Source of the DNA: a bacterium
GTDB taxonomy: Bacteria; UBA8248
Direction of reading: 5' to 3'
Length of the DNA: 64,000 bases
NCBI GenBank assembly: GCA_965199855.1
Contig: OZ241326.1
Coordinates: forward strand, 768,001 to 832,000
The notes beneath the pieces were generated by a model. That model was not told the DNA's origin. It saw only the letters and a program-made list of their open reading frames with translations, and did no database searches. Shown here one piece after another: positions 5,614-35,820 of this stretch (position 1 is its first letter; each line of letters starts with the position of its first letter). Both the position numbers and the translations under genes were made by a program.

Positions 5614-5814
5614 TCATCGCATGAACCGCCTCAAGTCCGCGCTCCCCGTCCCCTTCCCCCCGCCCGCGCGCTCGAGCGCCAGGCCGGCCTCGAGCGCCTC
5701 CTGGTTGAAGCGGAACTCCTCCCAGGAGCATCCGGCGAGAAGGTGCGGGGGGAGGCCGTAGGCTTTGGCCTGAAAGTGGATGAGCGCGAGGAGGTCGCGC
5801 CTCGCCCTACGGAA
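5614..5814 (-). CDS. Start-less +1-frame extension of the tail assembly chaperone (gpGT-like frameshift product)
   Basis: Open frame FRRARRDLLALIHFQAKAYGLPPHLLAGCSWEEFRFNQEALEAGL...FMR*, entered by a +1 shift at TTT-CCG-TAG; no own start codon near its 5' end. Confidence 0.45.
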   Translation of the reverse strand, partial: FRRARRDLLALIHFQAKAYGLPPHLLAGCSWEEFRFNQEALEAGLALERAGGGKGTGSADLRRFMR

Positions 5815-6196
5815 ACGCGCCGCCTTCGGGCGCGTCCTCCCCGGTCGGCGGGGCGGCCGCCTCGCCCTGCAGCGCCGTGACCGCGCTGAAGATGGCGTCG
5901 GCGTCCCCGGGGGCGAGCTCGTAGATGCTGAGCTCGTCGGGCAGGCAGCGCGCCGGCTCCTTTTCCGTCATCGAGCCGCGCTCGGGAATGAAGCAGCGCC
6001 GCAGGACGCAGCGAATCCACTCCCCCGTCAGCGCGTATTGCGCCTCCTCGTCCGCCGCCGCGTCCTCCGCGGCGCCGGCGATGAGCTTCGGATGCGCCGC
6101 CAGGTCGAGCAGGTTGGGCGCGCGGACGAAGCCCCTGAGCCCCGAGGGCAGGGTGACGGGCCTGCGGCCCCGGTTCCTGTATTCCGATATCTCCAC
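5807..6196 (-). CDS. Putative phage tail assembly chaperone
   Basis: 129 aa ORF directly downstream of tail tube gene; VTLPSG...VRAPNLLDL pattern; canonical position. Confidence 0.55.
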   Translation of the reverse strand: MEISEYRNRGRRPVTLPSGLRGFVRAPNLLDLAAHPKLIAGAAEDAAADEEAQYALTGEWIRCVLRRCFIPERGSMTEKEPARCLPDELSIYELAPGDADAIFSAVTALQGEAAAPPTGEDAPEGGAFP

Positions 6197-6251
6197 GAAA
6201 AATCTCCCTTTGGCTTTCGATGAAGGAAGGCGCGCCCGGACGGCGGGCGGC

Positions 6252-7391
6252 TCAGGTGAACACGATCTTGAGTTCGTCGTCGCCCGCGTCGCGCGTCAGG
6301 CGAAACGGGGCGTCGAAGGTCAGCACGCCGTCCCGCTCCCCGAATCCCAGATCCGCGTATTGGCACTTGGGCGCGGTGATGGAGCAGACGTTCCCCGCGC
6401 TTCGGCCGACGCGGACGCTCAGGGGAAGCCGCTCGCCGCGCTCCCAGTCGCCGAAGACGTCCTCCGCGGCCCTGAGCACGGCTTCGGGGTCGAAGGAGCC
6501 GGAGGGGGCGCGGCCCGTCACCAGCGCGGCCACGTGCCCGCCGGAGGCGTTCGCGCTCTGGCGCAGCGCCACGCTGTTGTTCATCTCGAAGCGGACGTTC
6601 GCCGCGTCGAAGTGGAAGCCGCCGAGCGAGAAGCCGCTCATGAGCGCGGGGGCGGGCAGCTGGGCGTCGTAGGAGTCGCCCGAAAGAAGGGGCGCGTCGC
6701 TCACCTCGAAGTCGGCCGCCTCGAACTCCCAGTCGATGGTGGGGACGCCGTCCAGGGGGCAGTTGACGGAGAAGGTGCCCATGCAGCCCAGATACATCAC
6801 CCGCAGGCCGTCAACGTAGGCCGTCAGGCAGAGCCGCGCGTAGCTCGCCCTGTCGGAGGAGGGCGCGTAGGCGACGGAGACGCCCGCGGAGATCGTCTCC
6901 GCCATCGCGCACCCCCGGAAGAGCAGCCCGTAGTCCGGCGCGACGCCGGCGGCGCCCGAGCCCCTGAGCTCGGTGGAGAAGGAAAGCCGGGCGGAGCGCC
7001 TGCCCGGCAGCGCGGGAAGCGGCGAGAGGCTCGCGTCCTTCACGGCGCGCTCGAGCCGCTCCACGCTGACCTCGTGGGAGAAGCCGCCCGCCCGGAAGAG
7101 CTCGGAGGCGCGGGCGGGCCGATCCAGCAGATAGGCCGTGCCCGAGGCGGGCCTGGCGTCCCAGGCGGCGTCCACGGTGAGGGTGTCCGAGGCGGCGTCG
7201 AAGTCGCGCACCCGCCGCTTCTGGCCGAGGCCCGCCCCCCGAATCGTCCGCAGCACCGCGCCGTTCCAGTAGTCGTCGCGCTCATCGAGCGCGGCGTCCG
7301 CGAGGGTGGAGGCGCCCGCGGCGTCCGCCGTCAGCTCCTTCTCCTCCGTCGCGCCGATAGTTTGCCGATCCGTCAGCATCGCGTTGCTCAT
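6252..7391 (-). CDS. Phage tail tube protein (non-contractile type) with inserted beta-rich domain
   Basis: FSTELRGSGAAG-x-APDYG-x-LFRGC, GCMGTF, VTGRAPSGSFDPE, GDDELKIVFT; ATG at 7391. Confidence 0.75.
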   Translation of the reverse strand: MSNAMLTDRQTIGATEEKELTADAAGASTLADAALDERDDYWNGAVLRTIRGAGLGQKRRVRDFDAASDTLTVDAAWDARPASGTAYLLDRPARASELFRAGGFSHEVSVERLERAVKDASLSPLPALPGRRSARLSFSTELRGSGAAGVAPDYGLLFRGCAMAETISAGVSVAYAPSSDRASYARLCLTAYVDGLRVMYLGCMGTFSVNCPLDGVPTIDWEFEAADFEVSDAPLLSGDSYDAQLPAPALMSGFSLGGFHFDAANVRFEMNNSVALRQSANASGGHVAALVTGRAPSGSFDPEAVLRAAEDVFGDWERGERLPLSVRVGRSAGNVCSITAPKCQYADLGFGERDGVLTFDAPFRLTRDAGDDELKIVFT

Positions 7392-7558
7392 TCCCCGCTC
7401 TCCTCCCGCTTCGGGTTTCCCTTGGGCGCGGGGGCGGCCTGCGCCCCCCGCGCCTCCTTCTCCGTCCTCCCCTCCCCGGGCGTCCCTCCGCCCGGGGCGG
7501 ACGCGGCGCGGCGCGCTTCCGCCGGCCGCGCCCGCGTCTCCTCCTTCGCCGGCTTCAA
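7388..7558 (-). CDS. Small low-complexity phage protein (56 aa)
   Basis: TTG start after GAGGAGGGAGAGG; stop overlaps tail tube ATG (ATGA). Confidence 0.35.
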   Translation of the reverse strand: MKPAKEETRARPAEARRAASAPGGGTPGEGRTEKEARGAQAAPAPKGNPKREESGE

Positions 7559-7570
7559 GCCTCTCCCTCC

Positions 7571-8104
7571 TCAGCCGCGCCGGATCCGCTCTATGGCCTC
7601 GATGCGGATTTCGGCGTAGTGGCAAAGCGCGCCCCCGAACGTCCTGAGCTCGATCAGGTCCACCTGCGGGGGCCGCAGACGCTCCAGGGAGCGGACGCGC
7701 GGCGCGCCGGACTCATCGAGGAGGCGAAGGGCCCGCTCGTCCCGGAAGCGGCCGCAAATCTCCTCGATCGCGTCCTGGAAGGCGAGCTCGCTGCCCGCCG
7801 CGTCCTCCGCGCCCATGATTCCGAACAGCAGGAAGGTGTGGGTTCTGCGGTTGAGTCCCCCCGGAGCGAAGCCGCCCCCCGCGCGCGAGCCGATGGAGGC
7901 GGCCTCCTCCCGCGCCCTTTCCCGCGTGAGCGTCCAGCCCCGGATCTGGACGACGCCGCCCCCCGCCTCCCAGCGGAAGAGGTCGAGATAGCCGCCCAGG
8001 TCGGCCGACCAGCGCTGATAGGCGTGCACCCGCCCCGCTCCCGCCGCCTTCGATACCTCCGCCAGAATGGCGTCGCCGATTTCCCTGTATCGAGATTCAG
8101 CCAC
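7571..8104 (-). CDS. Phage tail terminator/completion-type protein
   Basis: GRVHAYQRW, IRGWTLTR, SELAFQDAIEEIC, FGGALCHYAEI; position between HK97 gp10-like and tube genes. Confidence 0.65.
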   Translation of the reverse strand: MAESRYREIGDAILAEVSKAAGAGRVHAYQRWSADLGGYLDLFRWEAGGGVVQIRGWTLTRERAREEAASIGSRAGGGFAPGGLNRRTHTFLLFGIMGAEDAAGSELAFQDAIEEICGRFRDERALRLLDESGAPRVRSLERLRPPQVDLIELRTFGGALCHYAEIRIEAIERIRRG

Positions 8105-8597
8105 CGACTCTCTCCGCGATCTCTCTCGCCAGCGCGTCGAGGCGCCGCTCGATGCGGCTCCCGTTCTCATCCAGCACGCGGGCGAACATGAAGCGGCCCC
8201 GGACGCCCCGCCCGGCTATGGCGCGCGCGGCGAGAAAGGCCGCGCTCTGCGGGCTCCCCCCGCGCGGCGCCAGCTTCCGCGCCGCCCACAGGTAGAGGGG
8301 CGACCCCTTCCTCCAGGGAGGAAGGGGGCTTCCCGGCGGGCGGCCGAACTCCACGGGGGCGGCGTAGGGGCAGCGCGAGGCGACCATGCCGGTCACCGCG
8401 CCCCGCCCGTCTCCCCGGATCCCGGTGAAAACGCTTCCCCGCAATTCGCCGGTCGCCCCCGAGGGCGTCCTCCTCCTCGCCTCGCGCCCGAGCGTCTCCA
8501 CGACTTCGGCCATCGCCTCGCGCGCGAGCCGGAGAACCTCCGCCTCGAGAGCGCCCGGCCGCGCGTTCAGGAGTCCCCCGAAATTCCCTCGCCGCAT
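8097..8597 (-). CDS. HK97 gp10-family tail completion protein
   Basis: RTPSGATGELRGS, YAAPVEFGRPPG, ARAIAGRGVRGRFMF. Confidence 0.75.
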   Translation of the reverse strand: MRRGNFGGLLNARPGALEAEVLRLAREAMAEVVETLGREARRRTPSGATGELRGSVFTGIRGDGRGAVTGMVASRCPYAAPVEFGRPPGSPLPPWRKGSPLYLWAARKLAPRGGSPQSAAFLAARAIAGRGVRGRFMFARVLDENGSRIERRLDALAREIAERVGG

Positions 8598-8613
8598 TCG
8601 CCCTCTCCTCCGC

Positions 8614-9324
8614 CTAGCGCTCGTCGGGCGCGCCGCGCGTGACGTATTCGCCGCGCCGCCCGGAGAGGCTCGCGTCCCAGTCGAGCGAGGCGCCCGCGGC
8701 CGCCGCCGGCTCGCCCTCCTTCTGGCCGACGTGGTTTCGATACTTGCGCTCGAGCTCCCGCGCCAGGCGCGCGTATTCGCCGGACTTGCCCGGGTAGTCC
8801 GCCGAATCCGCCGCCAGGGTGGGGGGCGCGGACTGGGCGAAGCGGCGCGCCAGAAGGCCGCAGCCCTCGGCGGCGGCGAGCCAGGCCACGGCGGTCAGGT
8901 CGTTTCGGGGGACGCTCGCGCCCTCCTCGTCCGCCGCGTGTCCGATCGTGTAGAACAGGCGCGCCCGCTCGCCCCTGCGCGGGACGCTCCGCAGGAGCCT
9001 GAGCTTCGCGCCGGGGGCGCCCTTCGCGTAGATGCTCCAGTCGCGCCTCTGCAGGAAGGAGGGCGTCCGCCTTCCCTGGGGATATTCCACCGCCCGGACG
9101 ACCGAGAGGGAATCGTCCCAGTCTCCGGGCAGGGGGAAGTCGAACGAGGCGCCGTCGCCCTCGAAGTCGGCGAAGGCGGCGCGCGGCCTGTCCCGGCTGT
9201 AGCGCGCGAGGGCGGCGCTCACCAGGCCGGCGTAGTCCGCCTCCTCCAGCCCGAACTCCCGGGGCAGCGCGCCCGCCTTCAGGAGCGCCTTCGCCTCCTC
9301 GATGATCGTCTGCCTGCTGGCCAT
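8614..9324 (-). CDS. Phage head-tail adaptor-type protein
   Basis: AALARYSRDRP, VEYPQG, TLAADSADYPGKSGEYARLA; position after head genes; RBS before ATG 9324. Confidence 0.65.
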   Translation of the reverse strand: MASRQTIIEEAKALLKAGALPREFGLEEADYAGLVSAALARYSRDRPRAAFADFEGDGASFDFPLPGDWDDSLSVVRAVEYPQGRRTPSFLQRRDWSIYAKGAPGAKLRLLRSVPRRGERARLFYTIGHAADEEGASVPRNDLTAVAWLAAAEGCGLLARRFAQSAPPTLAADSADYPGKSGEYARLARELERKYRNHVGQKEGEPAAAAGASLDWDASLSGRRGEYVTRGAPDER

Positions 9325-9352
9325 CCGCGTCTCCTCTCCGCCCTCGGGCGGC

Positions 9353-9694
9353 TCAGGTCTTGAGCGCGAGCTTCGCCGAGAAGGTGAACGAGGCGCCCTC
9401 CCCTCCCACCGCCCAGGCGAGCCTGAGCCAGGGGCCGAAGTTCTCGAGCTTGAGGAGGGCCTTGCCCGCCTCGTCGATTCGCGCGGCCCTCGCGTGGACG
9501 AACGCCGCCTCATCGGCCGCCGGGCCGACCTCGACCGCCAGGTCGAGAGCGGGCGAGGCGCCCGAGGCCGCCGTCACGTCGATGAACAGCAGCGCCTCGG
9601 CGAAGCGGCTCACCTCGAACGCCGCGCTGCTCCCGCCCGCGGCGCGGGCCGCCGGGGGCGCGAGGACGATGGCGTGGACTCTCCTGTCGGGCAT
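9353..9694 (-). CDS. Putative head decoration/cement protein
   Basis: 113 aa beta-rich protein (LFIDVTAASGASPALDL, FGPWLRL, SFTFS) immediately after capsid gene. Confidence 0.5.
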   Translation of the reverse strand: MPDRRVHAIVLAPPAARAAGGSSAAFEVSRFAEALLFIDVTAASGASPALDLAVEVGPAADEAAFVHARAARIDEAGKALLKLENFGPWLRLAWAVGGEGASFTFSAKLALKT

Positions 9695-9723
9695 GGCTTC
9701 TCCTGTGAACGAGGCCGCGCGGG

Positions 9724-11790
9724 CTAGCCGGCGGGCGCGCCGCGGTAGAAGCCGCGGTAGTCCAGGACGGCGCCGCCGTAGACGTGCCTGATCTTGTAGC
9801 GAATCTTGTCCGCGCTGAATCCGCTGCCGGCCGAGGGGTTGTCCTCGATGAACAGCTCGGGCTCGCGCATGTCGTCCATGAAGCCGATCTCGATGGTGTC
9901 CATCAGCCCCGGGTCGGCGACGAGGAACCAGTTGTTCGCGTCGGTGAACTCCGGCACCCACAGGGGCTCCAGCCCCAGGCGGTTGATGACGCTGGGCTGG
10001 GTGGAGTTCTCTCCCGATACGACCTTGACGGAGGACTGGGTGACCTCGAAGGCCTCCTCGAGCAGCTCCGTCGGGTGGAGCAGATACCTGGGCCGCGCCT
10101 GCGCCGCCGCCTCGACGCCCGCCTCCCCGTAGAAGGTCTGCTGGCCCATCGCCTTGACGCCGGCGATGACGTTGTCGTAGGCGAGCGCGTTCGCCGACGT
10201 GTTGTTGTGGCTGGCGTGGAACAGGGCGGTTCCGTCATAGATGGCGGCGTTGCCCGTGAGGAAGCCGAAGACGAAGGCGTTCAGGGTGCGCTGCGCCGCG
10301 CGCGCCAGACGCTGGGGAATCATGCGGATCGCGCCCATGTCGTCGTTCTGTATCATCTCCCAGGTGAGCTCCTCGATGCCGCCGCGCTTGGACACGGAGT
10401 AGGTCACCTCCTCGTCCGTCGGAGAGGCCAGCGCGGGATACGACGCCTGCTCGGCGACCGTCTGCAGGTCGCCGTAGCCGCCCACGCGCACCCGGCGGTT
10501 CGTCCGGAAGTCCTTGACGGGCGCGGAGGAGGAGACGATCTTCCTCCACTGGTGAAACCGCTCGTCGCGGAAGTCCCGCAGCATGGCGCGCCGGATGGAA
10601 TCCCCGAACGCCTCGCCCCAGGAGCTCGCCTGAAGGGAGGCGGAGAGGCGGCGCGCCCCGCCGCGCTCCTCGCCGGCGCGGGGATGGTGGAAGGTCTCGG
10701 CGAAGAACCGGCCCGGGGTGAGGCGCCGGCCCGTGAAGTCCTGAAACGCCTCGCTCATGAAGCGGTAGGGCCGCTCGCCCTCCAGGGGCGCGTCGGACGA
10801 GCGCCAGAGGCCGTCCAGCGCCGCCCTCTTGCGATCCGCCTCGTCCCGAACCGCCTCCGCCCGCGCGCCGAACCCGCGCAGCGCGCCGCTCGCGGTGAGC
10901 TTCTCGAGCGTGGCGGCCTCGAGGCGAATCGCCTCCTCCGCCTCCGCCTCCGAGCAGCCGCCGCCGAGCTGCGCGCGCAGCTTCTCCCGCACGGGCTCCG
11001 GCAGGGCGGAGGCGTCGAGCTTCCGCGCGAGCGTCCGCCGCGCTCCCTCCTCCCGCGGCGCCTCCTCCGGCGCGCCGCCGTCTTCCCCGAGGTCCAGCTC
11101 GAGGCCCGCCTCCTCGCAGGCCGCGAGCAGCTGCCGCGGCGTCCAGCGCCCGCCGGGCTCCCCGGCCGATTCAGACGCCGCGCTCTTCAGTTTCCTCGCC
11201 AGTTTCTCGAACATCTTCGCCTCCGATCTGGTGGAATGGTGGGCGGCGAGACCCAATATCCCGCCTCCGAGCCTGCCCTTGTGCACGATATCGACGGAAT
11301 GCACCGCCAGAATTTCCTCGAAATGCAGGACGAGCCTCTCCTCCTCCTCGCGGAACTCCGCCCGGGCGAGCACGTCGAAGGAGAACCCGAACGGCTCCTT
11401 CAGCCCCCGCGCCAGGGCGTCCTGGGCGAGCGCCTGAAACCACGCGGCCGAGCGCGCGACCGCGAACCTGCTCATCAGCCCCTCCTCGCCCATGCGGACG
11501 CCGCGGTGCCAGCCGACCAGATCCCGAATGTCGGGGCCGCCGGGGGGCGCGTGGTTCGCGAACGCCTGCGCGCCCTCGAACAGGGGCGCGGCGCGGCGCA
11601 GCACCTCCCGGGGCAGGAACCACTCCCCGTCCTTCGAGTAGCCCGGCCGCGCGATGAGCACCTCGAAATCCCAGACCTCGCCCCCAGGCCCGGACGCCTT
11701 CGAGAGGGGGCGGACGAGGCGCCCCCGCAGGCGGAGGGGACGCGCCTCCCCGCCCGCGCGCGCCCGCGTTCGATTCACCCGTCTTTTCAA
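9724..11790 (-). CDS. Fused prohead protease-scaffold-major capsid protein (transposable-phage gpI/gpT-like)
   Basis: TTG at 11790 after AAGGAGG; protease motifs AFANH, GFSFD, SVDIV; capsid motifs KDFRTNRRVRVGGYGDL, KRGG, EMIQNDDMGAI, LFHASHNN, YKIRHVYGG-x-VLDYRG. Confidence 0.88.
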   Translation of the reverse strand: MKRRVNRTRARAGGEARPLRLRGRLVRPLSKASGPGGEVWDFEVLIARPGYSKDGEWFLPREVLRRAAPLFEGAQAFANHAPPGGPDIRDLVGWHRGVRMGEEGLMSRFAVARSAAWFQALAQDALARGLKEPFGFSFDVLARAEFREEEERLVLHFEEILAVHSVDIVHKGRLGGGILGLAAHHSTRSEAKMFEKLARKLKSAASESAGEPGGRWTPRQLLAACEEAGLELDLGEDGGAPEEAPREEGARRTLARKLDASALPEPVREKLRAQLGGGCSEAEAEEAIRLEAATLEKLTASGALRGFGARAEAVRDEADRKRAALDGLWRSSDAPLEGERPYRFMSEAFQDFTGRRLTPGRFFAETFHHPRAGEERGGARRLSASLQASSWGEAFGDSIRRAMLRDFRDERFHQWRKIVSSSAPVKDFRTNRRVRVGGYGDLQTVAEQASYPALASPTDEEVTYSVSKRGGIEELTWEMIQNDDMGAIRMIPQRLARAAQRTLNAFVFGFLTGNAAIYDGTALFHASHNNTSANALAYDNVIAGVKAMGQQTFYGEAGVEAAAQARPRYLLHPTELLEEAFEVTQSSVKVVSGENSTQPSVINRLGLEPLWVPEFTDANNWFLVADPGLMDTIEIGFMDDMREPELFIEDNPSAGSGFSADKIRYKIRHVYGGAVLDYRGFYRGAPAG

Positions 11791-11878: not shown

Positions 11879-11929
11879 AATCTAGGACAGGCGGACCCGG
11901 AGGCGGGCGGCGCAAATGCGGGCAAATGC
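11879..11929 (-). promoter_or_regulatory. Putative activator-dependent late promoter 1 (capsid/tail module)
   Basis: GCATTTGC-CC-GCATTTGC (+ strand 11912-11929), 27 nt gap, then -10 TAGATT (11879-11884). Confidence 0.7.
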
Positions 11930-13717: not shown

Positions 13718-13740
13718 CGCCGCTCCGCGAGCCTGCGGCC

Positions 13741-17743: not shown

Positions 17744-18277
17744 CTAACGGGAAGACGCGGCTTCCAGTTCCTCGACCCGCTCGCCGTCCTCGCTTTCCTG
17801 TCGGCGGCGTCGCCCGGCGGCTTCAATCGCCCGGGCGATGACGGAGAACGACTTCGGGGGGCCATACGAGCCTCTCACGTCCAGTTGCCGCAGTTTGTCC
17901 GTTTCCCAATCCGCGAGACGCCTGAACACCCTGGAGACGACCTGCTGCCGGGATTTGACGCGGGAGACGTCCTCCCCTTCCTCCTCCAGGAAGGCGCGGA
18001 CGCTGTTGACGTTCGGCATGAACCTCTTTTCCTCGTATTTCCTCGCAAGCGCCATGAGAGCGTTCTTTTTTCCCTCATCCGGCAACGCAAGGGATTCCAC
18101 GATGGCCACGGCGTTCGGCCTGGGTCGCGGCTTTCTCGCCCGCTTGACGGAAGCATTTATTGAGACGGGCGCGTTTGCCCGGGCGGGGCCGCAATCCTCC
18201 AGCGCTCTGCGAACCGCCTCGTATCCGCAATCCTCGACAAGGACCGACAGCAGGCTTCTCAAAGCGGTTTTTTTCAC
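17744..18277 (-). CDS. Hypothetical protein translationally coupled to ParA
   Basis: 177 aa, GTGA overlap with ParA stop, lower GC than flanks. Confidence 0.6.
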   Translation of the reverse strand: MKKTALRSLLSVLVEDCGYEAVRRALEDCGPARANAPVSINASVKRARKPRPRPNAVAIVESLALPDEGKKNALMALARKYEEKRFMPNVNSVRAFLEEEGEDVSRVKSRQQVVSRVFRRLADWETDKLRQLDVRGSYGPPKSFSVIARAIEAAGRRRRQESEDGERVEELEAASSR

Positions 18278-19140: not shown

Positions 19141-19454
19141 GCTTTTCTCCTCGGTTATCCGATGCCGCGAATTTTCATGAGCGCATCGTCAACGCGCTCT
19201 CCCCTATTATGCGCCCTCGCGCGCGATTTTGAAAATTCGAGAAACCCCCAGAACCGTTCCCCTCCGCCGCGGCGTGGCGTAGAGCGGACGGAAGCTTGCG
19301 GGATGGGGGCGCGTCCCTGGTCACGCCGCCGCGCCGAGGATGAAGAAGCGCCGCCGAACGTATCTCGCCCCCTGATCGTTCTTCTCACAAGGCTGACGAT
19401 ACCCTGATCCCGAACGGAAACGGCATCAAGCCGCCGCAAAAATTCACGCCCCCC

Positions 19455-20801: not shown

Positions 20802-20803
20802 TC

Positions 20804-21445: not shown

Positions 21446-22500
21446 GCGGGCGCCTCCGCCGGCGGATAGGGCGCGGCGGCGCGCAGGCTTTCCAGCAGCT
21501 CCCGCGTGACGGGTTGCGCGTCTCCCGCGTCGGGCATGGCGAGCGACGAGCAGCGGAAGCGCGCCTTCTCGCTCGGAAGCCGCGCGGCGGCCCACTTCGC
21601 CGCGATCCGGCGCAGGCGGACGGCGCCGACCGCGAGCTGGGAGAGGCGGTAGCTCCTGTGCCGGGGCAGGGCGCGCGCCGCCTCCCATCGCCCCGCTCCC
21701 CGCGCGAGCGGCGCGCCGCACGCCGGGCAGACGAGCGCCGAGGCGCGCAGGACGCGGGGCCAGTGCTCCTCCAGGGCGCTCTCCGCGCGGCAGGCGGGGC
21801 AGCGCGCGAGCCAGCGCCTCTGATCCCCCGCCTCGTACATGGCGTGAATGCCCGCCCCGGGCGTTCTCCCCACCGCGAGGTTCAGCGTCAGGGCGAGCGG
21901 CGAGGCGTCGAGGCGGTCGTTCGACCACGCGAGGTTCTCCGGCGGGAGGTCGTCCACCTCGTCCCGAATCAGCACGTCGAGCGGCAGCGAGATGGCGCTG
22001 CCCACGTCCCGGAGCCCCAGGATGTAGAGGAACCGCGACCCCCCGGGGCCGGGAAACTCCTTGAGTCCCCTCGGCGAGGCGCCCCGGTAGGCGCCGTGGC
22101 GCATGAGGCGGGCGATTCGCCCGCGCCGCAGCACCGGGCGCACGCGCGTCTGATCGAAGCGGTTGGCGAAGTCCTGGTCGGGCAGAAAATAGCCCACGTT
22201 CAGGCGGCGGACGATGACGCCGTAGAGCGCCGCGCCTATCGCCAGGGTGGTGAGGCCCACCTGCGCCCCCTTGAGGATGGTGATGGTCTCATCGGGCGCG
22301 CCCCTCTCGAAGACGGCGTCGAGGGCGGCCGCGGGCTCCAGCAGCGCCTCGCGCCCCTCGAAGGTGAAGGGGCCGCCGTCGGCGCGAATCTCGCTCGCGA
22401 GAAACCGCGCCAGCCCGCGCGCCGCGCCGGCGAAGCGCGCGGGGGCGCCCGCCGCCAGGGCGAGGCTCGGGGCGCGAATGATTTTTCGGGACTTTCGCAA
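21442..22500 (-). CDS. Terminase large subunit, GpA-type ATPase half
   Basis: ILKGAQVGLTT Walker A, LIRDEVDD Walker B, GDQRRWLARCPAC and CPACG Zn motifs; TTG start after GGAGGAG. Confidence 0.8.
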   Translation of the reverse strand: MRKSRKIIRAPSLALAAGAPARFAGAARGLARFLASEIRADGGPFTFEGREALLEPAAALDAVFERGAPDETITILKGAQVGLTTLAIGAALYGVIVRRLNVGYFLPDQDFANRFDQTRVRPVLRRGRIARLMRHGAYRGASPRGLKEFPGPGGSRFLYILGLRDVGSAISLPLDVLIRDEVDDLPPENLAWSNDRLDASPLALTLNLAVGRTPGAGIHAMYEAGDQRRWLARCPACRAESALEEHWPRVLRASALVCPACGAPLARGAGRWEAARALPRHRSYRLSQLAVGAVRLRRIAAKWAAARLPSEKARFRCSSLAMPDAGDAQPVTRELLESLRAAAPYPPAEAPA

Positions 22501-22551: not shown

Positions 22552-22602
22552 AATATAGGGCGCGGACGCCGCCGTCCGCGAGGCGCAAATGCGGGCAAAT
22601 GC
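22552..22602 (-). promoter_or_regulatory. Putative activator-dependent late promoter 2 (terminase/portal module)
   Basis: GCATTTGC-CC-GCATTTGC (+ strand 22585-22602), 27 nt gap, then -10 TATATT (22552-22557). Confidence 0.7.
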
Positions 22603-23465: not shown

Positions 23466-24755
<1,290 letters not shown>

Positions 24756-25524: not shown

Positions 25525-25896
25525 CTATGCGGCGCCTCCTTCCTCCGCGTCCAGCAGGCTCCGCAGCTTGGGAAGGAGATCGGGAGCGCCGACCTCGATC
25601 ATGTCCCAGATGAGGTCGTCGTTCATGCCCAGATAGCCATGAGCCAGCTGGTTTCGCGCGCCGATGATGTCACCCCAGTGAATCCCGGGATGCCGCTCGC
25701 GCGCCGCTTCCGGGACGTGGGTCGCCGCCTCGCCGATGAGTTCCAGGTTTCGCAGGGTGGCGTCGTAGGTGCGCGCGTCGGCGACGAACGCGGCCTGATC
25801 CAGCCCGGCCGTATAGGAGAGCGCCCTCTCGCCGAATTCGATCATGTCCCGGATGTAGAAGAGCCATTCGCGCCCCTGATGAACGCCGTCAGACAT
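25525..25896 (-). CDS. HepT/DUF86 HEPN ribonuclease toxin
   Basis: RNLELIGEA, RNQLAHGY (RxxxxH). Confidence 0.9.
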   Translation of the reverse strand: MSDGVHQGREWLFYIRDMIEFGERALSYTAGLDQAAFVADARTYDATLRNLELIGEAATHVPEAARERHPGIHWGDIIGARNQLAHGYLGMNDDLIWDMIEVGAPDLLPKLRSLLDAEEGGAA

Positions 25897-26179
25897 GAAT
25901 GAGATCCCGCTCGACGTAGGGGCGCAGCTCGGCGCGCACCATCTTGTCGGTCGCCAGATCGACCTTTCGTCCCAGCAGATCCTCGATGTAGAACTGCGCG
26001 CCGAAATACTTCGTCGTCGTCGTCCGCCCCTCGAAGCGCACGAGAACGTCGAGGTCGCTCCCCTCGCCCGCCTCGTCGCGGGCGAAGGAGCCGAAGATGG
26101 CGAGCTCGGCCACCCCGAAGCGCTCCGAGAGGGTCGCCTTGTGCGTCCGGAGCAGATGAAGCACGTCGTCTCTCTTCAT
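25889..26179 (-). CDS. MNT nucleotidyltransferase antitoxin
   Basis: FGSFARDE...SDLDVLV; overlaps HEPN gene. Confidence 0.9.
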   Translation of the reverse strand: MKRDDVLHLLRTHKATLSERFGVAELAIFGSFARDEAGEGSDLDVLVRFEGRTTTTKYFGAQFYIEDLLGRKVDLATDKMVRAELRPYVERDLIHV

Positions 26180-28405: not shown

Positions 28406-29176
28406 TCATTTCGCTCCCGGTTCTGGTTTGAAGCATTGGTTGGAGTCCAGAAATTTCTTCTCCTCGGCGTCCGCCCGAAGACCCCAGTAAAGTTTCAGGG
28501 CCGCCCACGTCTTCAGATAATCGCAGTGGTATGCCCGGTTCGGCGGAAGCCAGTGGACGGGGTCTTTGCTCCCCTTGGATCGGCTGCTTGAGGACGAAAC
28601 GGCGATCAACGTATCGGGGTTGGAAAGATCATTCGCGTATTCTCGCCGCTGCGCGGGCGTCCAGCCGGCGCCGCCGCTGCGATGCGCTTCGGCCAACGGA
28701 ATGAAATGGTCAATGTCCAGATATTTGGGATCGGTGAATACGCGACCCGTATACGGATCCTCCCATCGACCGGAGACGACCTCGCAGCCCGCCGCGTCGA
28801 GTTTCACGGGTCGGGTGCTCTCGGCTATCAGGACCTCATGCCTGGTATTCTGGCAGTCGCCGTCCTGATCGATCCAGCCCCCGTAGAGCTCCCTGCTGTA
28901 AGGAACCGCCTGGGCGGCCTCCCCGGATGAAGAACGATTCGTTTCCTTGGGGACGTTTCCCCGCCTCCGCCGGCCAAGCATGGGAGTTTCCGGCGAGCCG
29001 GCCCCGGGACGATGGCATCCGCCCCCTTTCCCGCCCCGATGGCAGCCGAATCTATCGAGTCCCCCGCCGCGAGCATGTGCGGGTTCGATTGAGACATGGG
29101 AGAGAAAGGCGAGGGTGAGAAAAAATACGGCTACGACAGAATTGCAAAGCTGATACGATCTGCCGTCTGCGGCCAT
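28406..29176 (-). CDS. Secreted DUF1524-type HNH nuclease with N-terminal YHYH-like segment
   Basis: Signal peptide, GGLDRFGCH, DGDCQNTRHEVL, DPYTG, LDIDHFIPL, RSKGSKDP. Confidence 0.8.
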   Translation of the reverse strand: MAADGRSYQLCNSVVAVFFLTLAFLSHVSIEPAHARGGGLDRFGCHRGGKGGGCHRPGAGSPETPMLGRRRRGNVPKETNRSSSGEAAQAVPYSRELYGGWIDQDGDCQNTRHEVLIAESTRPVKLDAAGCEVVSGRWEDPYTGRVFTDPKYLDIDHFIPLAEAHRSGGAGWTPAQRREYANDLSNPDTLIAVSSSSSRSKGSKDPVHWLPPNRAYHCDYLKTWAALKLYWGLRADAEEKKFLDSNQCFKPEPGAK

Positions 29177-29271
29177 CTTTTTCTTTCCTGTTTGCTCAAG
29201 CCTTACGCAAAAATAGCAAAAGCCCAATCCGGGAAATCGTGCTCCCGCTCTTCCGAGAAAATCCCCCGTTT

Positions 29272-29388
29272 GACGCCCGGCTCGGACGCGCCCGGCTTCG
29301 ACATCCTCTCTCGCCTCCGGCGACGGCTCGGAGCGGCATGACGCATCAACGCGGCCCCGGTGATTCCTTCATATCGACAACTCTTCCT
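29272..29388 (+). repeat. Direct repeat copy B
   Basis: Shares about 77 bp with copy A and about 100 bp with copy C; includes the MTase 3' end (EELSI*). Confidence 0.9.
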
Positions 29389-30829
29389 GCTTCGCGTCCG
29401 GTTGCTGGAAAGCGGCTCTTTTCCCCGGCGCTACCCTGAGAGGAGGGACTTTCACCGGCAAGCCTTCGGACTCGAAGAACTGCTCGATGGTGGCCACCTG
29501 AACGCGGGGAAACCTTCCGAAGTCGCATTCGTAAAAGCCCGCCGAGGCGGCCTGGGCCGTCATCGGCTGCGTCGGCGGCGCGAGCGTGATCAAAAAGCCC
29601 ATCGCCGCGCCTTCGGCGTCCAGGGTGGCCGTCAGCTCTCTGACCATGCCGACGCCGACGTTTTTGCCTCCCTTGACGGAAACAACGCAGAGTTCGTGTT
29701 TTTTCTCGCCCGTCATAATGTAGAAGAATCCATCTACGCCGCCGTCCGCCCCCTTCTTGCCCAAGCGCCATGGCTTGCCGTCGGGCATGAGGGTAACAGC
29801 CCAGAGTTCAAACTGATGCTTGTCCTGATCGGCCAAAGCGCGCGCGCCGGGGATATCCTGGGGCTGACCGTGAATCTCGTATCTCGCGCCCGGGAAAGCG
29901 CCTCGGAGCCGATCCCGAATCTCCCGAACGGCCAGATGGGTGATATCAATCCCCATCCATCGGCGGCCCAATTTCTCGGCCGCATGAACTGTCGTGCCGC
30001 AGCCGCAAAACGGGTCGAGCACCATATCGCCGGGGTTGGAGGAAGCCGAGACTATGCGCTCAAGCAGGGCGAGAGGCTTTTGCGTAGGATAGCCCAGACG
30101 CTCCCTTGATGAAGGCGCCAGAACAGGGATGCGCCAAACGGCGTCCAATGGAACGGCGGAATCTTCCCCGGTCTCCACTGTCGGATTTCTCGCCCCGCCT
30201 TCTCCAAAGGTTGCCCGCTGCCTTTTGCCCTTCCATCTTTTCCGGGAACTTTCCGACTGCTCGCGGTAAAGCTCGTTGAATGTTCCGGGCGCCGCGTTCC
30301 TGGAGTAATAAAGAATGATATCGTGCATTCGCTGAAACCTGCGCGCCTTCGTGGGCCAGCGACGATAGCTCCAGACAATCTCATTCCGGAAGCGATCTTT
30401 CCCGAACACGGCGTCCAGCAGAATTTTGAGATAATGGCTCGCCGTCGGGTCGCAGTGCAGGTAGAGGCTGCCCGTGGGCTTCAGCACCCGATGCAGTTCC
30501 AGCAGCCGCGCGGCCATCATCGCCAGATAGGCCATCATGTCGTTTTCACGCAAAAAAGAGCGCATCGCGTTCAGCATTCCGGCCGCGTCGGAATGACCCG
30601 AGCGCAATACCTCCTCGAAAGCCTCTTCCGCCTTCCGCCCCCAGTGCCAGGTGTCGTCGAACGCTTCGATCTGCGCGCCGCTGTTTTCTCCGGCGGGGGA
30701 CTTGAAAAGCACGTTGTATGCAGCGTTGGAATTGAACGGAGGATCGAGATAAATCAAATCCACGCTTTCATCGGGGACGCTTTCGCGCAGCACCGGCAGG
30801 TTGTCGCCATAGTAGAGCTGATTGGTCAT
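29369..30829 (-). CDS. Adenine/N4-cytosine DNA methyltransferase (beta class) with C-terminal restriction-endonuclease-like domain
   Basis: YLDPPFNS, YPTQKP, VLDPFCGCGTT; C-terminal GADGGVDG...VSVKGG. Confidence 0.88.
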   Translation of the reverse strand: MTNQLYYGDNLPVLRESVPDESVDLIYLDPPFNSNAAYNVLFKSPAGENSGAQIEAFDDTWHWGRKAEEAFEEVLRSGHSDAAGMLNAMRSFLRENDMMAYLAMMAARLLELHRVLKPTGSLYLHCDPTASHYLKILLDAVFGKDRFRNEIVWSYRRWPTKARRFQRMHDIILYYSRNAAPGTFNELYREQSESSRKRWKGKRQRATFGEGGARNPTVETGEDSAVPLDAVWRIPVLAPSSRERLGYPTQKPLALLERIVSASSNPGDMVLDPFCGCGTTVHAAEKLGRRWMGIDITHLAVREIRDRLRGAFPGARYEIHGQPQDIPGARALADQDKHQFELWAVTLMPDGKPWRLGKKGADGGVDGFFYIMTGEKKHELCVVSVKGGKNVGVGMVRELTATLDAEGAAMGFLITLAPPTQPMTAQAASAGFYECDFGRFPRVQVATIEQFFESEGLPVKVPPLRVAPGKRAAFQQPDAKQEELSI

Positions 30830-31357: not shown

Positions 31358-31927
31358 TCAAATGCGCTCCTCCAGGGCGCGGGCGGCCTCCGCGGTGATC
31401 TCCTCCACCTTCGCCAGCACGTCGGGATGGTCGAGGAGCGACTCGCGCACCTCGGCGAGAATCGCCATCTTGGCGGCGGCGAAGCCGTCCTCATACCGGA
31501 GCCTCAGCCGTCCCGCCGAGATGCGGGTGCGCTCGAGGGCGTTCACCATCCCCGCGAGCTTCTCCGGCGTGAGCTCCTCGAAGGATTCGCTCCTCATGCG
31601 CGAGACGGCCTCGACCGCCTGCGCCATCAGCATCCGCCGGGCGGCGGCCGCCGCCTTCTCGCCCGGGTCGCTCCCCTCGCCGTCGTAGGCGACGACCTCC
31701 TCGATGAGCTCGTCCACCATGGCCTCCACGCGCCTGCTCCTGCGGATGGCCGCGCGCAGCCTGCCGTTGCGGTTCTTCATCGAGCTGATGGAGATGCTCT
31801 CTCCCGTCGCCTCCTCGAAGGCGCGCGCCACCTCCCTGTAGGGCTTCCCGGCGGCGAGCATGGAATCGACCAGCTCCTCGGCGCCGTATTCCACGATCTT
31901 CGACCTGCGGCCCCGCTTTCTCTCCAT
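31358..31927 (-). CDS. Mu gp27/DUF3486-family protein (putative small terminase)
   Basis: RGRRSKI, N-terminal HTH (YREVARAF...ISISS), long helical C-terminus; TGATG coupling with upstream gene. Confidence 0.7.
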   Translation of the reverse strand: MERKRGRRSKIVEYGAEELVDSMLAAGKPYREVARAFEEATGESISISSMKNRNGRLRAAIRRSRRVEAMVDELIEEVVAYDGEGSDPGEKAAAAARRMLMAQAVEAVSRMRSESFEELTPEKLAGMVNALERTRISAGRLRLRYEDGFAAAKMAILAEVRESLLDHPDVLAKVEEITAEAARALEERI

Positions 31928-32259
31928 CACAGCGCCCCCGCGAGAATGTCCGCCGGAAGCGGCACCGCGCCCTCGAGCGCGCCCCGCCCCCGGCGGGTGA
32001 GGTGCGCCTCGTAGTCCGTCAGCAGGCGGCCGAACCCCTCCGGGGAGCGCTTCTCCACGAGGCCCCGGCGCGCCAGATCGTCCACGAACGCCTCGAGCGT
32101 CTCGCGGCCCAGGGGCGCGCCCTCCTCGTGGTGGCCCGCCTCGCGCAGCGCGCTCCACAGGAGGAGGCTGCCCACGCTCGCCCCCGCGTGAAAGGCGTCC
32201 TGGTAGTAGAGCGTCTTCAGGATGTCGCCGCGCAGAACGCGGGCGGTCAGTTCGTTCAC
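31927..32259 (-). CDS. Mu gp26-like winged-helix protein
   Basis: LRGDILKTL, DLARRGLVE, AHLTRRGR...EG; GGAGG RBS; precedes gp27-like gene. Confidence 0.65.
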   Translation of the reverse strand: MNELTARVLRGDILKTLYYQDAFHAGASVGSLLLWSALREAGHHEEGAPLGRETLEAFVDDLARRGLVEKRSPEGFGRLLTDYEAHLTRRGRGALEGAVPLPADILAGAL

Positions 32260-32384: not shown

Positions 32385-32792
32385 TTGCGCGCGAGCCGTC
32401 CGAAAATCATCCTCTGCGCCCTGTGCGCCGCGCCGCTCCTCTGGCTTTCCGCCGCCCCCGCCCTGGGCCACGGCGAGGAGGAAATCCTCCTGTTCGTCTC
32501 CATGGCGGACGAGCCGAACCTGCTCCGCGTCTCGACCGCCCTCGTGGGCGGCCTCATTCTCGCGCTGGGCGCGCTCATCCTGCGCCAGACGCGCGCCGGG
32601 GCGGGAGAGGAAGCGGGCGCCCCGCGCCTCAAGCGCATGGCGCCGGGGCTGGTCGCCGCGGGGCTGGGCGCCGCCATCCTGCTCACGGCCGCCTTCATCC
32701 TCCCCGAGCGGATTCCGGTGTTCCACGATCACCCCGTCCCCGGCGACGCCGGAGGCGGGCGAGAGGACGCGCCGCGGCCCTCGCCGCAATGA
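32385..32792 (+). CDS. Small membrane protein (signal peptide plus 2 TM)
   Basis: TTG after AGGAGGAG; three hydrophobic segments. Confidence 0.55.
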   Translation: MRASRPKIILCALCAAPLLWLSAAPALGHGEEEILLFVSMADEPNLLRVSTALVGGLILALGALILRQTRAGAGEEAGAPRLKRMAPGLVAAGLGAAILLTAAFILPERIPVFHDHPVPGDAGGGREDAPRPSPQ

Positions 32793-32827
32793 CGCCGAAA
32801 GACGGAAGCCGTCCGCCGCGTCAGCCC

Positions 32828-33262
32828 TCACTTCGCCCGCCCTCCGATCTTCTCCACGGTGCGGAGCGCGCCGAGTCCCAGCATCCCGAGGGTGAGCTCC
32901 ATGAGCCCGTCCGCCGCGACGGGATAGGGGACGAGCTCCCCCGTCATGATTACCTGGCGCGTCCACAGCCAGGCGCCCAGGGCGAACTGCGGGATGAAAT
33001 AGAACGCGAGCGAGACCCCGCACGTCCACAGGATGAACGGCCGGCCCCCCGCCACGAAGGGCGAGCGGTGCGCGGCCTCGATCTTCGCGATCTCCGCCTG
33101 CGCCTCCGCCGGCTTCATCATGATCTTCATCTTCAGGGCCTCGGCGGCCCGCTTCTCCTCCGGCGTCTCCACGAAGCGGTCGATCACGTTCGCCACGCCC
33201 TCGGCCGCCGTCGCCACGCTCGCCGCGCCTCCGCCCAGCAGCCCGCCCAGAAAGCCGATCAT
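32828..33262 (-). CDS. 3TM-type holin (DUF3154/GTA_holin_3TM family)
   Basis: EAAHRSPFVAGGRPFILWTCG, LGMLGLGALRTVEK; ATGA overlap with lysozyme. Confidence 0.8.
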   Translation of the reverse strand: MIGFLGGLLGGGAASVATAAEGVANVIDRFVETPEEKRAAEALKMKIMMKPAEAQAEIAKIEAAHRSPFVAGGRPFILWTCGVSLAFYFIPQFALGAWLWTRQVIMTGELVPYPVAADGLMELTLGMLGLGALRTVEKIGGRAK

Positions 33263-33723
33263 CTCCTCTCTCCTCCTCTCCCGGACTCCGGCGATTTCCT
33301 CGCCGTTCCCTCCGCCTCCCGCAGCCCCGCCGCCACGCGCGCCGCGCGCGCGGGCGCCTGCCGCGCGTATTCCGAATCGAGCGCCTCGGCCGCGGCGCGC
33401 CCATAGTCGCCGCGCGCCAGCGCCGCCCACATCCTCCGAAAGCCCAGCAGGGCGGGGACGCCCATGTTGTAGGCCATGTCGAGCAGCGCCTCCCGCGCGG
33501 CGGGGGCGAGGCGCCCGAAGACCGCCCCCCGCTCCGAGCGCGCCACCTCCTCCGCCATCGCGCCCAGGCGGTGGCGAAGGAGCAGCTCCGCCTCCGCCTC
33601 GCTCACGCCCTCCTCCAGCAGCGTTCCGTAGCCGATGGTCGCGTTCCCCAGATGGTCGAGATAGATTTTTCGGGAAAATCCCTCCTCGCGCTTGACGCGC
33701 TCGACCAGTTCGTCCGTGATCAT
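33259..33723 (-). CDS. Phage lysozyme (GH24-like)
   Basis: EEGFSRKIYLDHLGNATIGYG (E-x8-D-x5-T catalytic pattern), DMAYNMG, RQAPARA. Confidence 0.9.
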   Translation of the reverse strand: MITDELVERVKREEGFSRKIYLDHLGNATIGYGTLLEEGVSEAEAELLLRHRLGAMAEEVARSERGAVFGRLAPAAREALLDMAYNMGVPALLGFRRMWAALARGDYGRAAAEALDSEYARQAPARAARVAAGLREAEGTARKSPESGRGGERR

Positions 33724-33800
33724 GCGAGCCTCCTTTTTCGGGTCTGCGGCCTTTCCCGGCGTCCCGCGCCTCTTTCGCCGGACGCCGCCACCGCGGGAGG

Positions 33801-33851
33801 ATTCTAGCCGCGCCCCGCCCCTCTCCCGCGATCGCAGATGCGGGCAAATGC
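33801..33851 (-). promoter_or_regulatory. Putative activator-dependent late promoter 3 (lysis module)
   Basis: GCATTTGC-CC-GCATCTGC (+ strand 33834-33851), 27 nt gap, then -10 TAGAAT (33801-33806). Confidence 0.7.
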
Positions 33852-35817: not shown

Positions 35818-35820
35818 CGC

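Follow-up and report, generated by a model that had tools for sequence, protein, structure and literature searches.

The locus studied here raises the question of why phage late genes, still in phage order, lie dispersed among host genes. The window, the whole stretch of 64,000 nucleotides that was analysed (contig OZ241326.1, positions 768,001 to 832,000), comes from a genus without cultured members that is recorded under the labels Nitrospinota, Nitrospinaceae or Tectomicrobia. A preliminary description had reported four phage gene groups, and profile matches verified their places, their phage order and their common location on the minus strand:

32828-33723, minus strand: lysozyme-holin unit
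31358-32259, minus strand: small-terminase-like pair (gp26/gp27 positions)
19455-22500, minus strand: large terminase and portal (block B)
5614-11778, minus strand: protease-capsid to tail tube and chaperone (block A)

The blocks are separated by gaps of 7.7 kb and 8.9 kb. The host genes said to lie between them were found, including cdaA, an OsmC-like fragment, a dehydrogenase, two luciferase-like monooxygenases (LLMs), DUF520/yajQ, amt, and a HAMP-cyclase. The gaps also contain low-GC insertions (a ParA-like gene, HepT/MNT, GmrSD_C, and an MTase-Mrr fusion), which relatives do not carry, and the reported contrast in composition was reproduced, with a GC content of 0.69-0.75 in the blocks versus 0.50-0.63 in the low-GC segments. 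The lysis and gp26/gp27 genes are present as described and, as a correction, the two pairs are separated by a plus-strand host gene (32385-32792). The window indeed holds no tape measure gene; the gene was nevertheless located elsewhere in the same genome (G000:C1:2589032-2590855, L058:8032-9855; phrog_1535, E 2e-12), where it and the distal-tail genes lie more than 1.2 Mb from the window blocks. It is a single-copy gene present in 20 of 22 congeners, the very genomes that have the capsid gene. Weak PHROG matches, language-model look-alikes, synteny in relatives, and co-loss tentatively point to the identity of the distal-tail genes, for which two structure models (pLDDT about 45) were unusable. 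The phage set is broken into at least 5 transcription units, four in the window and the fifth over 1.2 Mb away.

Block A carries the head and tail genes, given below in phage order; all dN/dS values in this study are median pairwise NG86 estimates, and identities are those among congeners.

9724-11778, minus strand: protease-scaffold-major capsid fusion (684 aa; PF25209, E 1.4e-46; phrog_29592, E 5e-122; phrog_4523/133; dN/dS 0.17)
9353-9694, minus strand: small conserved protein after the capsid gene (113 aa; 65-74% identity; dN/dS 0.28)
8614-9324, minus strand: conserved head-tail joining region protein, family unassigned (236 aa; 69-80% identity; dN/dS 0.21)
8097-8597, minus strand: HK97 gp10-like tail-completion/neck protein (166 aa; PF04883, E 3.5e-4; phrog_5, E 3e-11)
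7571-8104, minus strand: conserved head-tail or tail protein, family unassigned (177 aa; 78-88% identity; dN/dS 0.18)
6252-7391, minus strand: tail tube protein (379 aa; PF18906 Phage_tube_2, E 2e-9; phrog_290, E 2.8e-14; dN/dS 0.17)
5807-6196, minus strand: tail assembly chaperone, G ORF (129 aa), with an overlapping T-frame extension at 5614-5967; assigned by position

The capsid fusion may in fact start at an in-frame TTG 12 nt upstream, behind AAGGAGG. The 113-aa protein gave no family match in the PHROG profile search, whereas the 236-aa and 177-aa proteins are 33-34% and about 29% identical, respectively, to ORFs at the matching positions in two relatives, G032 and G027. Profile searches returned no family match for the chaperone, and its position following the tube gene fits this identity. 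Congeners share 73-80% identity in the G ORF, and even the distant loci L044 (78%) and L046 (67%) keep the C-terminal portion of the T frame; the stretch reaching to 5614 is a conserved frameshift-type extension.

The packaging and lysis genes occupy the remaining blocks:

33259-33723, minus strand: endolysin of the phage lysozyme family (154 aa; PF00959, E 2e-12; phrog_7, E 7e-20; dN/dS 0.24)
32828-33262, minus strand: holin with three transmembrane segments (144 aa; PF11351 GTA_holin_3TM, E 1.7e-10; phrog_3427, E 1e-24; dN/dS 0.16)
31927-32259, minus strand: small conserved protein in the gp26 position (110 aa; 83-87% identity in 4 of 6 relatives; dN/dS 0.15)
31358-31930, minus strand: Mu gp27-like small-terminase-like protein (190 aa; phrog_426 terminase small subunit, E 5e-6; dN/dS 0.29)
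21442-22500, minus strand: large terminase, ATPase half (352 aa; PF05876 GpA_ATPase, E 4e-16; phrog_675 positions 25-343, E 1.7e-49; dN/dS 0.25)
20804-21445, minus strand: large terminase, nuclease half, as its own ORF (213 aa; phrog_675 positions 362-547, E 6e-8; dN/dS 0.20)
19455-20807, minus strand: portal (450 aa; phrog_10963, E 1.2e-43; 80-91% identity in congeners; dN/dS 0.16)

The terminase and portal were thus where they had been placed at 19.5-22.5 kb, but the terminase consists of two ORFs rather than one. The GTG start of the nuclease half overlaps the TGA of the ATPase ORF (a GTGA overlap), and this frame change is kept in all 6 relatives. The split could in principle impair the packaging motor, although both halves are conserved. 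Of the proposed gp26/gp27-like genes, the gp27-like one is supported by its PHROG match and is 71-75% identical in 5 relatives; its match to PF11985 (E 0.001, 19.9 bits) falls under the 28-bit cut-off. The gp26 assignment is positional, the 110-aa ORF giving no family match in Pfam and PHROG profile searches.

We propose that these genes constitute a domesticated, chromosomally fixed, multi-locus particle system derived from an ancient Mu-like siphophage, most likely a gene transfer agent (GTA), and we assign this reading a probability of about 0.6. On a host-controlled signal, the cell would express the units. A tailed head would be assembled and filled with DNA through the portal by the two-piece terminase (ATPase and nuclease) and the small-terminase-like protein, the chaperone and the tape measure, the latter encoded far away, would serve in building the tail, and the holin and lysozyme would lyse the cell. 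Because the genes are scattered over megabases, no particle could carry the whole set, so the packaged DNA would be essentially host DNA, as with a GTA.

The set resembles RcGTA-type GTAs of Alphaproteobacteria (Rhodogtaviriformidae) in its tailed-phage-derived head, tail, packaging, and lysis genes, its vertical inheritance and co-diversification with the host, its holin of the GTA_holin_3TM family, and its lack of replication and integration genes. Both systems are fully endogenised at several loci, RcGTA genes being placed at five in one account (PMC9662315). The system described here differs in host phylum, in its split terminase, and in having its head-to-tail genes cut into blocks amid host genes instead of forming one cluster. 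Its structural genes, with a PF25209 capsid-protease fusion, a gpA-type terminase, and a PF18906 tube, are non-homologous to those of RcGTA as far as tested. Particle production, packaging, and transfer are putative here. The set looks like a new, independently tamed GTA.

The particle may instead have been domesticated for another host benefit, as a PBSX-like killer particle, for programmed lysis or DNA release, or for defence against related phages. PBSX of Bacillus is a defective prophage in one contiguous cluster with its own repressor, and its particles hold host DNA. Like PBSX-type elements, the present genes are chromosomally fixed, encode a phage-like particle, and are conserved within a species group, but they occupy at least 5 loci and no phage-type regulator was found. 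The conserved lysis pair would suit such a role, and the inheritance, purifying selection, and joint loss described below fit it equally, none of them bearing on what happens after release. However, dN/dS values of 0.16-0.29 show purifying selection on the portal, on each half of the terminase, and on the small-terminase-like gene, none of which a pure killing or lysis device should need; tailocins, to our knowledge, lack head and packaging genes. We regard a benefit other than transfer as unlikely.

The phage genes are vertically inherited, kept intact under purifying selection, and lost together. Of 22 congeners, 20 carry one copy of the capsid gene, at 77-82% identity; in a second genus the identity is 72%. 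The adjoining host gene cofE shows 76-89% among congeners. The split layout is syntenic: the full interleaved order (F420 genes, tail/head, cdaA-LLM, portal/terminase, amt-cyclase, TerS, holin-lysozyme) recurs in 5 of 6 complete relatives, the sixth (G010) has both blocks A and B within the 60 kb examined, and at 21 of the 28 loci with a capsid gene, cdaA lies next to it. Concatenated trees of phage and host genes from 16 genomes shared 12 of 13 splits, the lone conflict having 9% support; this congruence with the host is partly expected, since the host genes used are physically linked to block A. Values of dN/dS were far below 1 and similar to those of the host neighbours, at 0.12-0.44 for block A versus 0.09-0.19 for nine flanking host genes with similar dS, 0.15-0.29 for blocks B and C, and 0.17-0.38 for the distal-tail cluster. 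The suggestion that the set is inherited vertically is borne out by these data, and each computational check put forward in the preliminary description favoured its reading.

Losses of the set were also traced. In two congeners (G008 and G009), the capsid, tape measure, t2522, terminase ATPase, and portal genes are absent genome-wide, and the host backbone is still collinear. They are not sister genomes: SH-aLRT support for the nested placement of G009 is 99%, and a clade joining the two is rejected by the AU test (p 1.3e-4). Compared with its sister, G009 has lost block A through a clean deletion of 7.7 kb; what survives there are the C-terminal 26 aa of the portal, the N-terminal 27 aa of TerS, and a relic of a promoter. 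In another genome (G023), portal and t2522 are broken, and searches for capsid and tape measure found neither. A sister genus carries a decaying copy of the set.

Such a pattern might be left by a cryptic, functionless prophage remnant that is slowly decaying and owes its conservation solely to common descent and to having integrated not long ago. Phage-type mobility and replication genes were not found, host genes and low-GC insertions break up the element, and besides the two complete losses and the decaying copy, individual genomes show disruption of a few genes: in L048, a stretch of 1.77 kb interrupts the tube gene, while the 113-aa gene is cut short in L037 and divided between two reading frames in L044. 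Together with the gp10-like gene, the fastest evolving of the set (dN/dS 0.44), these are signs of relaxed constraint. Yet the ORFs have stayed open, with dN/dS like that of host neighbours, at a dS among congeners of 0.35-1.0, and an intact gene (covered at least 85% by one open HSP) is seen in 156 of 164 block-A gene-locus pairs. Where selection evidently lapsed, in G023 and G009, the genes contain a stop and frame breaks or are deleted. The chaperone extension and the promoter motifs described below are conserved as well, and a remnant appears quite improbable next to a maintained GTA-like system.

An 18-bp direct-repeat motif followed 26-27 nt downstream by a -10 box was found at 5 of 6 operon starts, 85-134 nt upstream of blocks A, B, and C1, the distal-tail operon, and the tape-measure gene; the gp26/gp27 unit in this genome is without it. 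The three matches in the window (0 expected) are:

33834-33851, minus strand: GCATTTGCCCGCATTTGC with 1 mismatch, TAGAAT 27 nt later, 111 nt upstream of the lysozyme start
22585-22602, minus strand: GCATTTGCCCGCATTTGC, TATATT 27 nt later, 85 nt upstream of the terminase start
11912-11929, minus strand: promoter-associated motif GCATTTGCCCGCATTTGC, TAGATT 27 nt later, 134 nt upstream of the capsid start

The capsid and terminase copies are each kept in 6 of 6 relatives (the former at the orthologous site), with a 2-mismatch relic of the latter in G009, where the block is deleted; variants of the lysozyme copy occupy the orthologous site in G001, G022, G007, G020, and G019. Genome-wide, there are 69 distinct sites at up to 2 mismatches, most of which head two families of repeated, apparently non-coding elements (about 45 across the chromosome). 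The motif therefore represents host-type wiring, not a private regulon. The shared motif and the split terminase are features additional to those of the preliminary description. These promoter-bearing repeats would allow that the blocks are kept as a helper set, whose capsids another mobile element such as a satellite exploits. This is pure speculation, and we hold it to be very improbable: the repeats match no Rfam family and lack recognisable features of packaging or replication, and the motif is found ahead of ordinary metabolic genes, too.

The ancestry of the proposed GTA is suggested by relatives in which homologous late genes are contiguous (L046, L044, G032, and G027). The class-level relative G027 has a seemingly complete, contiguous Mu-like prophage whose homologues are 29-36% identical, and its cluster matches Mu Gam (E 1.5e-29) and, weakly, MuA-C, an AAA (MuB-like) protein, and Mu F, lending indirect support to the claimed descent from a transposable phage. 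The late order of B3/D3112-like, Mu-like transposable siphophages is also shared: lysis, small/large terminase, portal, protease/capsid, connectors, tube, chaperone, tape measure, tail tip. Unlike these phages, the present element is without an early region and cannot move. As claimed, no transposase or integrase was found among the window ORFs scanned (genes at 54.6-64 kb lay outside the scan); Mu F and Mor had no match in the genome, and searches for a receptor-binding protein and a Mu F-like head-morphogenesis gene found none. An ordinary active Mu-like prophage, for which the gene order and the G027 prophage speak, or an assembly artefact has a negligible probability, because many independent assemblies, several of them single-contig chromosomes, share the layout, host genes flank every block without a Mu F or Mor match in the genome, the flanking and separating host genes stay collinear in the two phage-free congeners, the tape measure and tail-tip genes are remote, and the closest phage capsid is 43% identical over just 43% of the protein. 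The terminase of G027, in contrast to the split one described here, is a single 529-aa ORF, and tblastn gave no alignment between the two.

The source genome is a single contig of 3.04 Mb with 67% G+C, on which the window occupies G000:C1:768001-832000. Because such a genome is rich in spurious ORFs, gene calling used a codon log-likelihood model that had learned from long ORFs of the same genome. Sponge metagenomes are among the DNA runs that contain the window sequence; no RNA run turned up in that search. The phage genes had been described as lying on the minus strand in phage order, and Pfam and PHROG matches bore out this order:

33259-33723, minus strand: lysozyme (PF00959, E 2e-12)
32828-33262, minus strand: three-TM holin (PF11351 GTA_holin_3TM, E 1.7e-10; phrog_3427, E 1e-24)
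32385-32792, opposite strand to the phage genes: host gene between the holin and the 110-aa ORF
31927-32259, minus strand: 110-aa ORF
31358-31930, minus strand: small-terminase-like (TerS-like) protein (phrog_426, E 5e-6; Mu gp27 Pfam family, E 0.001, under its cut-off)
20804-22500, minus strand: large terminase (PF05876, E 4e-16; phrog_675)
19455-20807, minus strand: portal (phrog_10963, E 1.2e-43)
9724-11778, minus strand: protease-scaffold-capsid fusion (PF25209, E 1.4e-46; phrog_29592, E 5e-122)
Between the capsid fusion and the tail tube, minus strand: four connector-region genes, one HK97 gp10-like
6252-7391, minus strand: tail tube (PF18906)
5807-6196, minus strand: chaperone

The genes form four blocks, namely the lysozyme-holin pair, the 110-aa ORF with the TerS-like gene (gp26/gp27 unit), the large terminase with the portal (block B), and the capsid fusion through the chaperone (block A). 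Gaps of 8.9 kb (TerS-like gene to large terminase) and 7.7 kb (portal to capsid fusion) hold host genes: cdaA, an OsmC-like fragment, a dehydrogenase, two luciferase-like monooxygenases (LLMs), DUF520, amt and a HAMP-cyclase. Left of the tail genes, the opposite strand carries the F420 biosynthesis cluster. An overlapping alternative frame of the chaperone gene reaches 5614, and the segment it encodes is kept in distant loci (78% in L044, 67% in L046), the pattern of a putative frameshifted G/GT chaperone.

A weak Pfam tape-measure signal led to a fifth locus, the plus-strand operon G000:C1:2581916-2590855 of the source genome. Searching the genome with PF10145 returned two sub-threshold matches only, one of which marked this locus; the other, at 710 kb, was dropped as a tape measure, being a coiled-coil protein beside an OmpA-family protein. 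The operon comprises the following features:

Start of the operon, plus strand: six conserved ORFs, most likely distal tail, no Pfam family
L058:6051-7820 (G000:C1:2587051-2588820), plus strand: three tandem paralogous ORFs of ~184 aa, directly upstream of the tape-measure gene, no family match
After the tandem ORFs, plus strand: tape measure of 607 aa (four PHROG tape-measure families, best E 2e-12)

The six ORFs are assigned to the distal tail because the same genes come after the chaperone or tube in less rearranged relatives, where the distal-tail genes directly follow the chaperone in phage order. Locus L046 reads capsid … tube, chaperone, tape measure and then t916, one of the six ORFs; L044 reads portal, capsid … chaperone, ~4 kb and t916; and in the class-level relative G027 the homologues of t916 and of a second ORF, t2522, come after the tube region. 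Language-model look-alikes of two of the six ORFs belonged to viral clusters and TipJ/Phage-tail_3 clusters (scores 0.95-0.98) and serve as leads only. Structure prediction for the two largest tail-tip candidates yielded models of unusable quality (pLDDT 44.6 and 45.2), and profile searches of both against all PDB chains, RcGTA proteins included, gave nothing above chance. The tandem ORFs have a lower GC (~0.60) and a dN/dS of ~0.45, and show 35-43% identity to single regions in the relatives G007, G022 and G019 and to two regions in G001, with none in G020; they may encode a variable component of the tail or of host range. Convergent with the tape measure lies a host gene of the CinA family (competence/damage-inducible; L058:9944-11272, G000:C1:2590944-2592272). 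It is kept in all relatives examined, phage-free ones included, and its position beside the tape measure is probably a coincidence.

An ordinary active Mu-like prophage would be marked by MuA/MuB, an early region and late genes in one contiguous run; here the late genes are scattered, no phage early genes lie beside any block, and searches of the genome for Mu F and Mor gave no match. The search for the Mu transposase core (DDE, PF02914) was empty too but carries no weight, its control being equally silent. The closest phage capsid among 50,697 phage records shares 43% identity over the C-terminal 43% of the protein. Homologues of the portal, capsid, three connector genes, tube, t916 and t2522 form one contiguous cluster in G027. 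Ahead of it come Mu Gam (E 1.5e-29), a weak match to the Mu transposase C-terminus, an AAA protein and an amidase. The putative terminase of G027 is a single ORF of 529 aa ahead of the cluster, and a weak Mu F match follows the portal. The whole span (L071:7429-L072:13478 on G027:C6) also includes a Dam-like methylase. The G027 element is a seemingly complete Mu-like prophage and a likely model of the progenitor. The preliminary description had proposed transposable-phage ancestry without an ordinary active prophage; the second point agrees with the missing early genes and the Mu F and Mor searches, and the ancestry gains support from the homologous Mu-like cluster of G027.

The capsid gene is single-copy in 20 of 22 congeners at 77-82% identity, falling to 72% in a second genus of the family and to 40-44% in four more distant genomes. 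For comparison, the host gene cofE, a neighbour of the phage block, is 76-89% identical in congeners and 56-67% beyond. Synteny was assessed over 60 kb around the capsid gene in six complete relatives. The interleaved order was whole in five; for G010, the remaining one, the fetched stretch took in blocks A and B. Phage genes are 52-91% identical across these five relatives, and the interspersed host genes fall in a similar range. In a separate collection of capsid loci, cdaA adjoins the capsid gene in 21/28 and cupin/F420 genes adjoin the chaperone in 19/28; four of the loci with no cdaA match end at a contig end. Since independent relatives and loci share the layout, a mis-assembly is excluded. 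Trees of seven concatenated block-A genes and of nine flanking host genes from 16 genomes had 12 of 13 splits in common, the lone conflict carrying 9% support in the phage tree. Given the linkage of these host genes to block A, the comparison mainly excludes replacement of the block rather than transfer of the whole region.

Selection was estimated as median pairwise dN/dS (NG86).

Median pairwise dN/dS and dS by gene group
Seven block-A genes: dN/dS 0.12-0.44 (six ≤0.28; gp10-like 0.44), dS 0.35-0.52
Nine host neighbours of block A: dN/dS 0.09-0.19, dS 0.40-0.67
Portal, both terminase halves, TerS-like gene, 110-aa ORF, holin and lysozyme: dN/dS 0.15-0.29, dS 0.52-1.02
Six distal-tail ORFs and tape measure: dN/dS 0.17-0.38, dS 0.50-0.80
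Tandem 184-aa ORFs: dN/dS ~0.45, dS ~1.0-1.2

A single open alignment covers at least 85% of the gene in 156 of 164 block-A gene-locus pairs. The eight exceptions are four contig ends, one chaperone with 82% cover (L044) and three lineage-specific defects. The tail tube gene of the congener locus L048 carries a 1.77-kb insertion (L048:15025-16793) between halves that remain in the same frame, and a 113-aa gene is truncated in L037 and split over two reading frames in L044. Four expectations of the preliminary description were thus borne out: conservation across related genomes in the single-copy capsid gene, synteny in the interleaved order, host-congruent phylogeny with respect to host genes linked to block A, and constraint in the dN/dS of block A set against that of its host neighbours.

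Two congeners, G008 and G009, gave no genome-wide match to the capsid, tape measure, t2522, terminase ATPase or portal. Their host backbone is intact in order (F420 genes, cdaA, LLMs, amt, cyclase, the 32385 gene and the 34051 gene), so that the host genes between the blocks are collinear in these phage-free genomes, and both retain the host gene beside the tape measure. They are not sisters: G009 is nested in a clade next to L040 (99% SH-aLRT), and an AU test rejects a G008+G009 clade, a group named after the tree had been seen (p 1.3e-4). Relics persist in G009, comprising the last 26 portal codons (E 0.001), the first 27 TerS-like codons (E 5.5e-6) and a copy of the block-B promoter motif with 2 mismatches; relative to its sister, it has a clean 7.7-kb deletion of block A. 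The sister genus represented by G023 holds a decaying copy (G023:C132:4110-13351), in which the terminase ATPase remains whole, a TGA stop and a split over two reading frames disrupt the portal, and t2522 is in three pieces; the capsid and tape measure were not found in G023. A set that is not maintained thus decays or is deleted piece by piece, and elsewhere it is whole. Such joint loss is the pattern expected of scattered blocks under selection as a single unit.

Two ORFs encode the large terminase. The stop codon (TGA) of the ATPase ORF and the start codon (GTG) of the nuclease ORF share bases in a GTGA at 21442-21445, and a GIDTGD motif stands just after the nuclease start. The frame change is present in 6/6 relatives, the halves are separate matches in L053 too, and both are under purifying selection. 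An 18-bp direct-repeat motif, GCATTTGC-CC-GCATTTGC, lies 85-134 nt upstream of block A, block B, the lysozyme-holin pair, the distal-tail operon and the tape-measure gene. In the three window blocks it is followed 26-27 nt downstream by a TAnAnT-type box, and the distal-tail and tape-measure operons have the similar A/T-rich boxes TATAGT and AATACA at that position. The 64-kb window contains three copies, against none in 100 shuffles. The motif is kept at orthologous sites in relatives; G022, G007 and G020 also carry a copy before the gp26/gp27 unit, a position without the motif in the source genome.

A private late-gene regulon like that of Mu C/Mor was rejected, as no Mor homologue was found in the genome and the motif is present at 69 sites. 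These are the distinct genome-wide sites with at most 2 mismatches, and on their account we therefore retain the motif only as shared host-type promoter wiring. By ORF scoring, with the tape-measure start revised, six of the sites stand no more than 150 nt from a strongly coding start, five of them in the element. This arrangement suggests that each block has its own promoter of a host-wide type, with coordinated control. Most of the 69 sites head two repeated, apparently non-coding element families, one of ~230 nt in roughly 25 copies and one of ~480 nt in roughly 20 copies. Both start with the GCATTTGCCCGCATTTGC motif and a -10-like box (for example G000:C1:265881-266480, L081, and 23701-24300, L082). 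An Rfam search with three copies gave no match; small RNAs and MITE-like promoter carriers are candidate natures for these repeats.

The review of Kogay et al. 2022 (PMC9662315) characterises GTAs by caudovirus-like proteins, full and often multi-locus endogenisation and mostly vertical inheritance, and further by a gene set that cannot be packaged in full in one particle, packaging of random host DNA and delivery to other cells. In the present element, the capsid, portal, terminase, tube, neck, tape measure, holin and lysozyme match Pfam or PHROG families. Endogenisation is complete, with four window blocks and the fifth locus more than 1.2 Mb away on the 3.04-Mb chromosome. The capsid position is constant wherever its context was examined, dS is like that of host neighbours, and the element co-diversifies with host genes, those in the tree being linked to block A. 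The separation of the loci argues, by geometry, for a gene set too scattered for one particle; the same text words the criterion as packaged DNA length versus locus size. Compared by Pfam families and by PDB profiles of two tail-tip candidates, the element shares with RcGTA the holin family alone.

Judged on its sequence, the element is a predicted domesticated, multi-locus particle system of Mu-like derivation, very probably functional and most likely a GTA of independent origin. The fullest form of this reading, to which we give a probability of about 0.4, is an independent GTA and new viriform lineage that would have arisen from a Mu-like siphophage and been fixed before the radiation of an uncultured, partly sponge-associated family, with five scattered operons on a host-wide promoter motif and a two-polypeptide packaging motor, and that would mediate DNA exchange among unculturable symbionts. 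The same review classifies three GTA groups that were exapted independently and whose genetic basis is established (PMC9662315). Each known group has shaped thinking on host-controlled gene exchange. A search of literature listings found no report of GTAs in Nitrospinota or Tectomicrobia. If the element is a GTA, its source is another type of phage and its host an uncultured lineage found in sponge metagenomes, and the taming of whole virions would be commoner than supposed. The contiguous Mu-like prophage, the partly split copies and the fully scattered set form a stage series, beside complete losses and one decaying copy, from which the path of domestication can be reconstructed. The split large terminase offers a natural test of function as two separate polypeptides, and the capsid, portal and motif are targets for virus-like-particle sequencing in sponge microbiomes.

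The window also contains low-GC insertions at 17744-19454, 25525-26179, 28406-30829, 35425-37525, 47809-49380 and 52260-54247. Their cargo includes a ParA-like gene, a HepT/MNT toxin-antitoxin pair, GmrSD_C with an N6/N4 methylase-Mrr fusion, Vsr with a C5 methylase, a Fic protein, and an N6 methylase with a TdeIII-type restriction enzyme. Of those checked against the fetched stretches of relatives, the ParA-like gene, GmrSD_C, the 35-37.5 kb cassette and the 52-54 kb RM pair matched weakly or not at all, and HepT/MNT and the methylase-Mrr fusion were found again in G001 only. The ParA-like, GmrSD_C, HepT/MNT and methylase-Mrr insertions sit in the gaps between phage blocks.
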